DNA of 22,618 nucleotides from an uncultured archaeon (GCA_964610875.1 CAZSWP010000047.1:1-22618), one strand, 5' to 3'. Counted from the first letter of the stretch, positions 9,265-12,598 are shown. Program-made: numbers and translations. The notes: generated by a model from the sequence alone, not told the origin.

Positions 9265-9912
9265 TCATTCTTCATTGATTTCCTCATTGGATAGTTCCTC
9301 AATCTGTCCTGAAGCCATGTCTGCTCCATCACCAAGCCCAGCCTGTGCCTTCAAGTCTTCAGGAATGAATTGATAGAGAATGATTCCGGCCATAATATTG
9401 ATGATTGCTTGAATCGTATTCAAGAAAAGGTATGCAGCTGAACCAATAATTGCCGCATCAAGTGGAAGGCCGTAAAAGAGTTGTAACAGAAAGATATTGG
9501 TGAAAAACATCCCAGTATCCCTAAAAATGGTGCCAAATATCACAAAGACTAGCACTCTCGATCTCTTTGAGAGATTAAGACGAGTGGAGATGAGTCTTGC
9601 AGAGAGAAGTCCTAAAATGGTAAAGAGTTCGGCAAAGCCCTTGAAGGCGGCACCGATAAAATTTCTGTAGCCAATTGCAACCCACATGGCAGTAATTGCA
9701 ATAATAGAGAACACAAAGCCAAGACCTATGAATATAATGACAATAGGAATACCTGTGGGGTCAAGTGTGAATCTACCAGAAGGATCAATTGGAATATCGG
9801 TCACTCCAGGAATAGGAAATGCTTCCAGAGCAATGACAATGGCAGTGAAGACTGCTAGTAACGCAATGCTCTTTGAGTCCTGCCTGATTCGATGTTTTTC
9901 TAGCCAATCCAT
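9265..9912 (-). CDS. ECF transporter substrate-binding (S) component, substrate unknown
   Basis: SKSIALLAVFTAIVIALE helix 1 with AxxxA, FTLDPTGIP loop, about 6 TM segments, late FLNTIQAIIN; GAGGT SD. Confidence 0.75.
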   Translation of the reverse strand: MDWLEKHRIRQDSKSIALLAVFTAIVIALEAFPIPGVTDIPIDPSGRFTLDPTGIPIVIIFIGLGFVFSIIAITAMWVAIGYRNFIGAAFKGFAELFTILGLLSARLISTRLNLSKRSRVLVFVIFGTIFRDTGMFFTNIFLLQLFYGLPLDAAIIGSAAYLFLNTIQAIINIMAGIILYQFIPEDLKAQAGLGDGADMASGQIEELSNEEINEE

Positions 9913-9924: not shown

Positions 9925-10049
9925 CTCATATATCGATTAATTGTCCTGAGGGAAATCAGATTGATTGGTTTTCTTGTAGATTAACGCAAAGACAATCGCC
10001 TGAAAAAGTCACTGGCAGTATGATTGGTATTCGTAAGAAGTAGATACAG

Positions 10050-10084
10050 AAAAAAAGTGCTCACGTTGCCTCTAACACGAGCAC
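10050..10084 (-). terminator. 11-bp hairpin plus U7 terminator closing the micro-ORF unit
   Basis: GUGCUCGUGUU-AGAGGC-AACGUGAGCAC-UUUUUUU on the minus strand (two G-U pairs). Confidence 0.8.
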
Positions 10085-10183
10085 GTCTTCCTTTGACAGG
10101 TCACAACCTTCGCAAGGTCCTTGTGACGTCTTGTGTAAGGTGAGATTATCATTTCTCACCAGATGTTCATGCTTCACCTTCAT
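10061..10183 (-). CDS. Candidate 40-aa micro-protein with CxxC (ORF C)
   Basis: MKVKHEHLVRNDNLTLHKTSQGPCEGCDLSKEDVLVLEAT*; AGGAGG SD at normal spacing; stop inside the terminator stem. Overlaps the alternative ORF D. Confidence 0.4.
   Translation of the reverse strand: MKVKHEHLVRNDNLTLHKTSQGPCEGCDLSKEDVLVLEAT
10072..10152 (-). CDS. Candidate 26-aa basic Cys-tailed peptide (ORF D, alternative frame to ORF C)
   Basis: MIISPYTRRHKDLAKVVTCQRKTCSC*; preceded by GGTGA; stop at the terminator loop. Confidence 0.35.
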   Translation of the reverse strand: MIISPYTRRHKDLAKVVTCQRKTCSC

Positions 10184-10189
10184 CAGGAT

Positions 10190-10288
10190 CTACCTCCTGA
10201 TGTAAGTATAAGCATAAGCTAGAGCATCAGTAGAGCCAGCACGCTTGGTGATTCTGCGCTGGGTCTTGTTGTCCTTAGCTAGAGCCAT
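10190..10288 (-). CDS. 32-aa basic micro-protein (peptide B), paralog of peptide A
   Basis: MALAKDNKTQRRITKRAGSTDALAYAYTYIRR*; strong GAGGTGA SD overlapping the stop of peptide A; synonymous differences from A in the shared motifs. Confidence 0.8.
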   Translation of the reverse strand: MALAKDNKTQRRITKRAGSTDALAYAYTYIRR

Positions 10289-10295
10289 GTTCTTT

Positions 10296-10403
10296 TCACC
10301 TCACAACAGTTCTGAATGCATAAGCAAGAGCATCAGTCTTCTGAGCTTTTGCAGCTTTGTTCTGTGTTCCGTGATTCCGGGTTGTGTTCTTTGCAAACGC
10401 CAT
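10296..10403 (-). CDS. 35-aa basic micro-protein (peptide A)
   Basis: MAFAKNTTRNHGTQNKAAKAQKTDALAYAFRTVVR*; TATA box 33 nt upstream; paralogous to peptide B. Confidence 0.8.
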   Translation of the reverse strand: MAFAKNTTRNHGTQNKAAKAQKTDALAYAFRTVVR

Positions 10404-10435
10404 TGTTGTTCACAATAATTACTACTCAGAAATAG

Positions 10436-10485
10436 TATATAATACGAAGCCACGATATAGGGTCACAAAAATAGGTCACAAATTG
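10436..10485 (-). promoter_or_regulatory. TATA box plus tandem upstream TTTGTGACC repeats
   Basis: TTATATA at 10442-10436; GGTCACAAA direct repeats at 10461 and 10474 (13-bp period). Confidence 0.65.
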
Positions 10486-10515: not shown

Positions 10516-11772
10516 CTAAGTCAATTTTAAGTCAAGATTCTCCAAGGGCACCCATCCCTCAACATCTGTTTCAGTCTTCACCCATGCCCAAGCACTCTCT
10601 GTGAACATTATTTCAACTCTGATTCCTTTTTGTACTGGTAATTCATAGGAACTATAGTCACGTAGTGACTTGAAGGAACTAGAACTATCATCTATTTCCT
10701 GCAAGTAATGTTCTGGAACCCATCCTGTGGTACCAGTTGGGTGTTCACACAAAATCCACCCTGAATACTCCGTTCTCCCTCTCTCACCGTGAAGGATATC
10801 ATTTCTTTTCATTACAAGTGGAGGTGTTTCCTCTGGATCATGATTTCTAGTCACTATTGTCATTTTCGTGCCTCCCCGAGATTGCATTTTTTGTGCAATT
10901 ATAACACCGATTATTGTAATCACTCCACCCAGAATTTGGATGATACTTGTACTCTCGCCGAGAATGAGTACTGACATCAATACCCCCCAGACACCAATCA
11001 AGTTGAGAGCAATCTGTACCCGAGAGGCCTCAATATACTTCATTGATTCATAGTATAAGACAAACGCGATGAATGTGTTCACAATTGCAACCCATGTGAC
11101 TGCAAGCCATACGTCACTACTGAGGGAGAGAAGAATAGATGTATCTTCCAGTAGAAATGCAGAGGTCCAGATGAAAGGCACTGCCAATAGAGAACTGTAG
11201 AAAGACACAGACACAGAGTCAATGGTCTTCACAACCATCTTCCCAACAATTCCATTGAGTGCGAAGAGAAGTGTCGAAACTATGATTATGAGATCACCAA
11301 TCAACCGTATTGGACCAATTGAGGATTCTATTGGAGTACCACCAAGGACAATGAGTGAAGCTCCAAGTGTAGCCAAGATAAGGCCACCTACTTTGTCTGC
11401 AGTGATCTTTTCACCAAGTAGAGGGGTAGCTAGGACTACTGCGAACACAGGAGTGAAGTTCAGTAGCAGAAGGGTTTCTCCAGCTGCGGTCAGACTCAGT
11501 CCAATGTATTGTAGTATCTGAGAGAGAAACGGGCCGGTGATACCTGCAAGTAACAAAAGACGAAGGCTTGTCTTTATCTCAGACCTCGTTGCTGTATGTT
11601 TCTTCCGCATCATCAAGAGAGCAAAGAGAAAGGGACATGCAAGTGTATACCGAAGTGCAACAAAGAGAATTGGAGTCAATTGTACGTAGACTATCTTTGC
11701 TATTATCAAGGATGAGGACCAAAAGACAGTAGTGAATATGATACCAACCCATGCAAGTATCTTCTTCTCCAA
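10516..11772 (-). CDS. EamA/DMT-family transporter fused to tandem SH3-like domains
   Basis: About 300 aa of 10-TM EamA repeats, then two GW...GWVP..L SH3-type repeats; internal GGGGAGG SD with in-frame ATG at 10863. Confidence 0.88.
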   Translation of the reverse strand: MEKKILAWVGIIFTTVFWSSSLIIAKIVYVQLTPILFVALRYTLACPFLFALLMMRKKHTATRSEIKTSLRLLLLAGITGPFLSQILQYIGLSLTAAGETLLLLNFTPVFAVVLATPLLGEKITADKVGGLILATLGASLIVLGGTPIESSIGPIRLIGDLIIIVSTLLFALNGIVGKMVVKTIDSVSVSFYSSLLAVPFIWTSAFLLEDTSILLSLSSDVWLAVTWVAIVNTFIAFVLYYESMKYIEASRVQIALNLIGVWGVLMSVLILGESTSIIQILGGVITIIGVIIAQKMQSRGGTKMTIVTRNHDPEETPPLVMKRNDILHGERGRTEYSGWILCEHPTGTTGWVPEHYLQEIDDSSSSFKSLRDYSSYELPVQKGIRVEIMFTESAWAWVKTETDVEGWVPLENLDLKLT

Positions 11773-11782
11773 CCATTCACAC

Positions 11783-12598
11783 CTACAGTAATTTCATTTC
11801 TTCAAAGCACTGCTTTAGCAGGAGATATCCATGATGTATGACTGAGCGATATGCTTTGTTGCTCTTGAAGTCTGAGAGAAACATGTCCCACCCAGATCTA
11901 TAGAATCCAACATAATGTTCAGCAATGTGAGCTCTGTCACTCTCTTTCAGTTCTTTTGCGATCCTTGTTCTATTCCAGGACCATACTTCCAGTGGGTCTT
12001 CGTGCTGTTGTGATAGTAACCGTACCGGTGTCGGGGACACGAGCCAACATATACGCCTGACAAGTGACCAGATATCAAATCCCACACGATCAACTGTACT
12101 CAAAGGTAACCTCTCCAGAACCTCTTCTAATTCTTGCATATTATTTCTATCAATCTCACGAATGACATCTGGAGATGGGGGATTCTCTTGTTTTGGATTT
12201 CCATGGAGAATTTGAACATTTTCAAGTCGTGGGGGAACGTAGATAATTAATTGTTTCAATCTGTTGACATCTACTAGTTGTGTACGAGGCATGTGTAAAT
12301 GCTCAGGTTGGCGTTTGAGAAACTCTTTCTCGAAAGACTCAGATATCTCCAATGCCTGTTCAAATGAAACTTCACTTAGTATCATGGGCGCATCATCCAC
12401 TGTTTTGACGTGGATATCAACATCGCTTAACACAGGAACATAATCAATTGGTGAGTCCCAGGGTTTCACACAGGACCCCTTCATGATCACATAGTCCAAC
12501 TTATTCCCAAATTCTGTCTGAAGAACTGCGTTCCAAGCTTGACCACATGATTCAATGTCTTCTCGAGCACGTGCTTGTAGGGGCTGGAAATCGGGCAT
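11783..12598 (-). CDS. Pol-beta-superfamily nucleotidyltransferase-fold protein
   Basis: VIMKGS...DYVPVLSDVDIHV (GS...DxD motif) followed by a helical C-terminal region. Confidence 0.7.
   Translation of the reverse strand: MPDFQPLQARAREDIESCGQAWNAVLQTEFGNKLDYVIMKGSCVKPWDSPIDYVPVLSDVDIHVKTVDDAPMILSEVSFEQALEISESFEKEFLKRQPEHLHMPRTQLVDVNRLKQLIIYVPPRLENVQILHGNPKQENPPSPDVIREIDRNNMQELEEVLERLPLSTVDRVGFDIWSLVRRICWLVSPTPVRLLSQQHEDPLEVWSWNRTRIAKELKESDRAHIAEHYVGFYRSGWDMFLSDFKSNKAYRSVIHHGYLLLKQCFEEMKLL

Follow-up and report, generated by a model that had tools for sequence, protein, structure and literature searches.

Within a 22,618-nucleotide (nt) stretch of DNA from an uncultured archaeon (GCA_964610875.1 CAZSWP010000047.1:1-22618; this whole stretch is referred to below as the window), the minus strand between positions 10216 and 10050 reads as a chain of four hairpins laid over the start and stop signals of several very small open reading frames (ORFs). 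The question raised by this locus is what the hairpins do. An earlier sequence-only reading offered two answers: a translational relay, in which each terminating ribosome opens the next initiation site, or a structured RNA with a dual function. Among known prokaryotes, the Asgard archaea are most closely related to eukaryotes. To our knowledge, regulation at the RNA level and the small proteome have hardly been explored in this group. In the present study, we found that the flagged stretch is the 3' third of a self-contained, unannotated tricistronic operon encoding the micro-proteins A, B, and C, which is typical of Thorarchaeota (Asgard). The reading that we favor, and consider reasonably probable, is that the A-B-C operon is expressed by coupled translation, with hairpin 1 (H1) locking the start of ORF C in this copy and hairpin 4 (H4) plus a U-tract ending the transcript.

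As read from the sequence, positions 10482-10050 of the minus strand form a compact expression unit consisting of a promoter, ORFs A, B, and C, and a hairpin followed by U7. Counted from its promoter box, the unit covers 10466-10050 (minus strand, approximately 420 nt). The open frames are as follows (aa, amino acids).

10296..10403, minus strand: ORF A, 35 aa, basic (MAFAKN...TDALAYAFRTVVR); open frame, codon statistics
10190..10288, minus strand: ORF B, 32 aa, basic paralog of ORF A (MALAKD...TDALAYAYTYIRR); open frame, codon statistics
10061..10183, minus strand: ORF C, 40 aa, with a variable N-terminal part and a conserved C-terminal LSKEDVLVLEAT; frame conservation
10170-10156, minus strand: MNIW followed by a stop codon, open frame in the +1 frame of ORF C
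10152-10072, minus strand: ORF D, open frame in the +1 frame of ORF C

ORFs A and B are coding genes. In ORF A, 46% of the differences are located at the third codon position, and the synonymous fraction is 0.59 versus 0.15-0.22 in shifted frames; the synonymous fraction of ORF B is 0.59-0.68. When ORFs A and B are taken together with the final 10 codons of ORF C, third-position differences account for 46-57% and the synonymous fraction is 0.59-0.74 versus 0.08-0.22 in shifted frames. Across the family, A-type peptides follow the pattern MALAxN...ST.AL.YAY.TVVR and B-type peptides MALAK...ST.AI..AYFRR. Both are hydrophilic and basic, with a median net charge of approximately +5 (range +2 to +10). 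Hidden Markov model (HMM) searches of A, B, C, and D against Pfam and NCBIfam gave no match even at E 1-10, and a search of the ESM Atlas gave no usable match. A combined A and B profile run against 1.8 billion proteins returned 59 matches, nearly all of 29-37 aa, with no annotated family among them.

A DNA search of 60 relatives gave matches in 24 of the 36 genomes of the same family and none outside that family. The window's own genome carries a second full copy (on contig C3, hereafter the paralog) and a third, partial copy. Species-representative genomes were also scanned with the promoter pattern GTGACCCN6GTGGCTYYGNWWTATATACT, which identified at least 115 loci, with several per metagenome-assembled genome; most were labeled Thorarchaeota/Promethearchaeota, some uncultured archaeon, and one Hermodarchaeota. 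The exact pattern occurs three times in the window's own genome. A fourth promoter-like match there, with 3 mismatches (contig C17), was rejected; the gene that follows it encodes an unrelated 421-aa repeat protein, and the peptide genes are absent. ORF chains were rebuilt from 111 non-redundant units. Their commonest architecture comprises two basic peptides (A-type, then B-type) followed by a third ORF with a variable N-terminus. A full-text literature search found no description of this operon family.

The paralog is 100% identical from approximately 10495 to 10257, a tract that takes in the promoter, all of ORF A, and codons 1-11 of ORF B, after which the two copies diverge sharply with indels. 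The alignment of 10505-10257 to contig C3 (L026:1690-1940) covers approximately 250 nt, which are identical apart from 2 mismatches at the upstream edge. The identical tract looks like the product of gene conversion that homogenised the 5' half only. The third unit, on contig C8 (L031:1501-1760), contains, besides the promoter, a single A-type ORF; 3' of it lie an unrelated 12-bp hairpin of its own and a T-run. Six other loci (L036, L060, L070, L080, L082, and L122; e.g., L036:5445-5570, minus strand) carry a fourth conserved small ORF of 39-44 aa (...W.QSGH(K/R)TGQLVSETAY.VTNL) between the peptide genes; it is unannotated.

The sequence-only reading extended its relay through MNIW and ORF D and asked whether frame C or frame D is conserved. 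Conservation was found for ORF C, and not for ORF D. The 3' motif of ORF C was detected in 48 units independently of ORF calls, and stop codons were then counted in the 75 nt 5' of it: the ORF C frame contained 2, and the other frames 30 and 127. The synonymous fraction reaches 0.74 over the last 10 codons versus 0.08 off-frame. In the first 20 codons, differences are spread evenly over codon positions (0.35/0.31/0.34), with a synonymous fraction of 0.26. Because of these stop counts and codon statistics, we regard ORF C as a real gene that comprises an unconstrained linker and a constrained C-terminal dodecapeptide. The first 20 codons appear to evolve neutrally, and the dodecapeptide alone shows the pattern of purifying selection. 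The family consensus at the C-terminus is L-S/T-x-x-E-V-L-A-L-E-A-T. One conserved Leu is encoded by six different codons, even where a base pair of H4 is thereby broken, which argues for selection at the protein level on the stretch that forms H4. Despite indels, the paralog also keeps a 40-codon ORF C, which ends in EDILALEAT.

The N-terminal part of ORF C is probably disordered, and the charge of the protein across the family is acidic to neutral. A search for homologous proteins with ORF C found nothing, and no other EVLALEAT-coding motif was present in the genome; it is carried by the two ORF C genes only. D-like ORFs were found in 4 of 46 units, with unrelated lengths and sequences, and the paralog has no equivalent. 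Since the +1 frame is not conserved, ORF D and MNIW were ruled out as genes and are regarded as chance open frames. The Cys-containing products (CEGC or CQRKTCSC) that had suggested metal, Cys, or redox sensing fared no better: Cys occurs in 9 of 46 ORF C proteins, CxxC occurs in 2, and the paralog has none, with KGNG in place of CEGC.

Three apparently natural B-C fusion proteins of 69-72 aa (P0027, P0050, and P0052), which were among the matches of the profile search in public protein collections, were considered and set aside. P0050 (L155:235-453, on a Thorarchaeota-like contig) translates only if TAG is read as Gln and is thus a gene-calling artefact; P0027 and P0052 likewise have Gln where the ORF B stop would be. 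None of the three was counted as evidence for an interaction between B and C, the artefact status having been checked for P0050 alone. B and C share a reading frame in 37 of 43 units, which makes false read-through calls easy. AlphaFold2, applied to the B-C read-through product (not a natural protein), predicted low-confidence helices at the C-termini of ORF B and ORF C, with a mean predicted local distance difference test score of 60.

The 3' part of the unit contains the following RNA structures (dG, folding free energy; z, z-score against shuffled sequences).

10168..10216, minus strand: H1, 21 pairs with two 1-nt bulges; dG -25.9 kcal/mol, z -7.5, 0 of 200 shuffles as stable
10139..10160, minus strand: hairpin 2 (H2), GGUGAGA/UCUCACC, in ORF C codons 8-15; dG -10.5, z -4.8
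10100..10127, minus strand: hairpin 3 (H3), bulged stem within ORF C; dG -10.5, z -1.6, 14 of 200 shuffles as stable
10057..10084, minus strand: H4, 11-bp stem with 5 G-C pairs; dG -13.1 kcal/mol, z -2.7
10050..10056, minus strand: U7 tract (T7), directly 3' of the H4 stem

The four-hairpin chain had been described with correct coordinates and sequences, and all four fold as claimed. The 191-nt tail has a minimum free energy of -70.7 kcal/mol (z -5.5), and none of 200 shuffles was as stable. The four hairpins are also present when the whole predicted transcript is folded.

H4, which had been proposed as a terminator, is made of the final seven amino acid codons of ORF C (Val-Leu-Val-Leu-Glu-Ala-Thr), the stop codon UGA, and the next 4 nt. 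Across 45 distinct sequences, 91% of cells are paired, against 21-51% in slid-register controls. In pair 12-35, which occurs as GC (23), AU (12), GU (6), and UA (2), the third position of a Val codon is bonded to a non-coding base past the stop. In pair 15-32, which occurs as CG (31), UA (7), and UG (4), the partners are the third position of a Leu codon and the second position of the stop; CTC goes with TGA, and CTT with TAA or TAG. Stop codon choice therefore covaries with a synonymous site six codons upstream. The covariation score was reached by 0 of 500 shuffles. These results indicate that H4 is conserved at the RNA level, as the one conserved hairpin of the four, and that it overlays coding sequence with a structured RNA 3' end. 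T4 or longer follows within 30 nt 3' of the hairpin in 40 of 46 family units, and U7 is likely a transcription termination signal. Archaeal terminators depend on U-tracts, which together with aCPSF1 (FttA) are sufficient, and a hairpin is not required (PMC8716108). Elsewhere in the window, sites with a hairpin and a T-run show no enrichment (16 versus 13.6 expected). Since they are not enriched and archaeal termination is generally hairpin-independent, H4 is a special feature of the operon rather than a habit of the genome.

A hairpin and U7 situated approximately 145 nt upstream of a co-oriented gene, with the ORF C stop within the hairpin, may also be read as a ribosome-dependent attenuator, in which the small ORFs and H4 control read-through into the gene for a 215-aa membrane protein (9912-9265). 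Other family members lend this some plausibility, in that units without ORF C have a transporter gene of the MFS type (MFS_1/MFS_3) directly 3' of the peptide genes, often 0-10 nt away, which accounts for 17 of 40 downstream proteins. However, those MFS-linked units lack H4 as well as ORF C, and the genes 3' of A-B-C units are diverse (hydrolases, flavodoxins, and others), with no linkage to one gene. The 215-aa gene has its own TATA-like element approximately 25 nt 5' of its ATG, the consensus and transcript folds revealed no alternative (anti-terminator) pairing that is conserved, and archaeal termination uses U-tracts and not hairpins (PMC8716108). We consider attenuation extremely unlikely at this locus. 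As a separate observation, the MFS gene takes the position of ORF C in L022, L055, L062, L065, L104, L108, L121, L123, L127, and others.

The overlap of coding sequence and stem admits another interpretation, that ORF C is mainly a translated spacer that delivers ribosomes into H4, with the 3' end acting as a translation-sensing switch tuned by H1-H3. H4 would then form only on untranslated or released mRNA, and 3'-end formation, stability, or read-through would be tied to a completed A-B-C relay. Such an Asgard 3'-end switch would be analogous to, yet distinct from, bacterial attenuation. We give this idea little credence and return to the favored reading, coupled translation of A, B, and C.

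The arrangement of the three genes is consistent with coupling. The ORF A stop codon UGA is located inside GAGGUGA (10302-10296), which is the Shine-Dalgarno (SD) motif of ORF B and lies 7 nt 5' of its AUG. The ORF C SD is AGG AGG (10198-10193), the last two Arg codons of ORF B. The ORF B stop UAG (10192-10190) is separated from the ORF C AUG (10183-10181) by 6 nt, the same gap as in 35 of 43 units. The 3' end of 16S rRNA, which would contain the anti-SD, was sought and is not present in the assembly, and SD-motif enrichment at gene starts was used in its place. SD-like motifs occur 5' of 9 of the 18 large ORFs in the window versus 5% of random 15-nt windows, a contrast inflated by up to 40 candidate starts per ORF. 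Coupling by RNA unfolding has been modeled, and very short stop-start distances are needed for coupling (PMC12548453, PMC10666635). The stop-start distances of A, B, and C are in the range of efficient coupling (PMC10666635, PMC12548453). The geometry supports the view that ORFs A, B, and C form a tightly spaced, translationally coupled chain. The proposed relay thus retains its step from B to C, with the coupling geometry and H1 over the ORF C start, and loses its MNIW and ORF D steps, the frame of which is not conserved.

H1 holds the ORF B stop codon UAG in its loop (GGUAGA), as had been noted. Its 5' arm corresponds to ORF B codons 24-31, including AGGA of the AGGAGG SD, and its 3' arm to the first codons of ORF C, which contain the ORF C AUG as well as the AGGUG and AUG of MNIW, also as described. 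Among 43 family A-B-C units, this is the most extreme B/C junction (junction z -4.8 versus a median of -0.5). H2 folds as predicted. H3 folds but, taken alone, is indistinguishable from chance. H1-H3 are copy-specific. H2 and H3, which fall within the neutrally evolving part of ORF C, carry no conserved signal, while they may add RNA stability.

Several results weigh against assigning H1 and H4 the roles that we favor. The paralog, which is 85% identical overall, has no counterpart of H1, and its B/C junction folds differently and weakly (z -0.8 to -1.3). A search for homologs of H1-H3 with 10225-10085 in 85 other genomes of the family gave short, chance-level matches only. H1-H3 therefore have no covariation support, in contrast to H4, and it is unproven that H1 is under selection; when the largest ORF C subfamily was folded to a consensus, H4 was again the sole covarying structure. 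The claim that H1 buries the ORF C SD and AUG holds to the extent that AGGA and AUG lie within the stem. However, their unpaired probability is at the level of shuffled flanks, both in the family (median z -0.1, p = 0.6) and in this copy (0.36 versus 0.37). It is at the null even here because a G-rich SD pairs readily with anything. Since archaeal termination has no need of a hairpin (PMC8716108), the role of H4 is also one that we infer. Finally, the family-wide comparisons of junction and interior z-scores given next rest on related sequences and show modest effects.

Across 26 cluster representatives, structure is modestly stronger at B/C than at A/B junctions (mean z -0.62 versus +0.28, paired p = 0.01), and it is stronger in the interior of ORF C than in that of ORF A (mean z -0.86 versus +0.39, p = 4e-5). 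Strong junction stems with different partners occur in a few unrelated lineages, with z values of approximately -3.5 to -4.1 in the L033 group and approximately -3 in L115 and L117. This modest trend leaves room for weak, lineage-by-lineage selection on the structure of the ORF C region.

H1-H3 may instead be evolutionary by-products without a selected role, in which an inverted repeat of the constrained ORF B 3' end arose, for example, by a template-switch mutation, and was able to persist because the N-terminal two-thirds of ORF C is almost free of constraint. C would then be coupled to B through stop-start proximity alone, as in the stem-less members of the family. Neutral evolution over ORF C codons 1-20, the restriction of H1-H3 to this copy, and the null accessibility of the SD and AUG are as this explanation predicts. 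The same applies to the 5' arm of H1, which is ordinary family coding sequence (AYAYTY-RR) and confines the novelty to the 3' arm. However, a 21-pair stem with z -7.5 is unexpected from drift alone, very stable B/C junctions recur in the unrelated lineages described above, and average structure is stronger in the ORF C region than in ORFs A and B. We regard an origin as by-products as possible, but on the doubtful side.

The strong structure of the tail also bears on the second answer of the sequence-only reading, namely, a structured RNA with a dual function. Under this answer, the 3' half of the transcript would be a riboregulator or a protein-binding or stability module that acts besides or instead of encoding ORF C. 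H4 is conserved as RNA, and ORF C interiors are more stable than their shuffles in the 26 lineage representatives (p = 0.002) over a stretch in which the protein sequence is unconstrained. In contrast, conserved structure and covariation are confined to H4, the ORF C frame is kept open with clear protein-level selection at its C-terminus, and there is no known target or partner. Comparison of the whole window with Rfam 15 at the gathering threshold gave 0 matches, and no tRNA was found either. A dual-function RNA is, in our view, very improbable.

The promoter of the unit comprises the following elements.

10434..10482, minus strand: promoter region with direct repeats, box, and TATA; putative function
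10482-10474 and 10469-10461, minus strand: direct repeats TTTGTGACC, two copies
10466-10448, minus strand: conserved box GTGACCC-N6-GTGGCT
10444-10435, minus strand: TATA box TATTATATAC
10409..10415, minus strand: initiator-like TTGTGAA, approximately 25 nt 3' of the TATA box, conserved in unit alignments

The box and TATA element match the family pattern exactly at 10466-10434, and ORF A begins 5 nt past TTGTGAA. Judged by the TATA spacing, the 5' untranslated region before ORF A would be merely 8-10 nt or so. The flanking genes are archaeal and encode a split RNA polymerase Rpb1/Rpb2, ribosomal protein S7, and EF-1alpha. The TTTGTGACC motif is also present in inverted form (GGTCACAAA) at 9925-9933, between the TATA-like element and the ATG of the downstream 215-aa gene. 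The shared motif is possibly a common operator, or else a chance overlap with the GAGGT SD of that gene. The 215-aa membrane protein itself (9265-9912, minus strand) has no Pfam or NCBIfam match, and neither does a 271-aa protein upstream (11783-12598, minus strand). The upstream gene at 10516-11772 (minus strand) encodes an EamA (DMT) transporter with a C-terminal SH3-like domain (SH3_2, E = 5e-7, above the Pfam threshold), which is an unusual fusion.

Under the favored reading, expression of the operon would proceed as follows. Transcription would start a few nt 5' of ORF A, from the highly conserved promoter. Ribosomes would pass from ORF A to ORF B and on to ORF C by short-range coupling, each stop being in or beside the next SD. 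In this copy, H1 would pair the ORF C start codon with the last codons of ORF B and thereby block independent initiation at ORF C. A ribosome that ends at the UAG in the loop would have unwound the 5' arm of H1 and would cover the 6-nt spacer and the AUG, such that the start is freed at termination. Coupling by RNA unfolding (the model of PMC12548453) would be limited to the B-to-C step and to this copy. ORF C would yield a real 40-aa protein. H4 and the U-tract would end the transcript and probably protect or stabilise its 3' end. With the stop codon located inside the stem, H4 would have to be opened by any ribosome that completes ORF C. We infer the transcription start, the translation of the ORFs, the dependence of ORF C on ORF B, and the role of H4.

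The present results describe a lineage-specific, multi-copy operon of three micro-proteins that belong to no known family and are mostly missed by gene callers. In at least one checked case, a caller that reads UAG as Gln has put a false B-C fusion into public databases. What is new is the gene model (A, B, and C are genes, and D is not), the dual constraint on H4 with covariation between codon and stop, the neutral linker of ORF C, and the copy-specific nature of H1-H3.

The unit may be compared with several known systems. Type I toxin-antitoxin (hok-like) mRNA, which combines a small hydrophobic membrane toxin with an antisense RNA, was considered and rejected, A and B being hydrophilic and basic and ORF C acidic to neutral; an antisense promoter was not searched for. 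Aureocin A70 and psm-alpha represent leaderless multi-peptide bacteriocin and PSM-type operons, with tandem paralogous genes for peptides of approximately 30-35 residues. A and B resemble them as tandem paralogs without a signal or leader, with a transporter in the same operon in part of the family. However, A and B are hydrophilic, strongly basic peptides that lack an evident hydrophobic or amphipathic core, and there is no transporter at this locus. The single linked downstream gene and alternative folds typical of an attenuator were not found here.

Similar to a bacterial intrinsic terminator, H4 has an 11-bp stem with 5 G-C pairs and U7 directly 3' of it, and the stem is backed by covariation. 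It differs in its archaeal host and in that the stem is coding sequence, including the stop codon, with a Leu site that covaries with the stop. Termination-reinitiation has been described in archaea (PMC6728339, PMC10666635). Coupling by RNA unfolding is exemplified by phage f1 genes VII/IX, MS2 coat/lysis, and E. coli rpmI-rplT (PMC12548453). As in these examples, the ORFs examined here are co-directional and a few nt apart, the downstream start lies in a hairpin the 5' arm of which is in the upstream ORF, and the downstream SD is inside the upstream coding sequence. They differ in that the genes are of 32-40 codons, the host is an Asgard archaeon, the hairpin is present in one copy, and the system is known from sequence alone. 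Of the features by which such systems are recognized, the short stop-start distance and the structure that buries the start are present at this locus, and conservation of that structure is not. The B-to-C mechanism that we propose is of a known kind, translational coupling by RNA unfolding. This locus provides a test case for such coupling, and also for terminators with hairpins in an archaeal lineage where termination is considered hairpin-independent.

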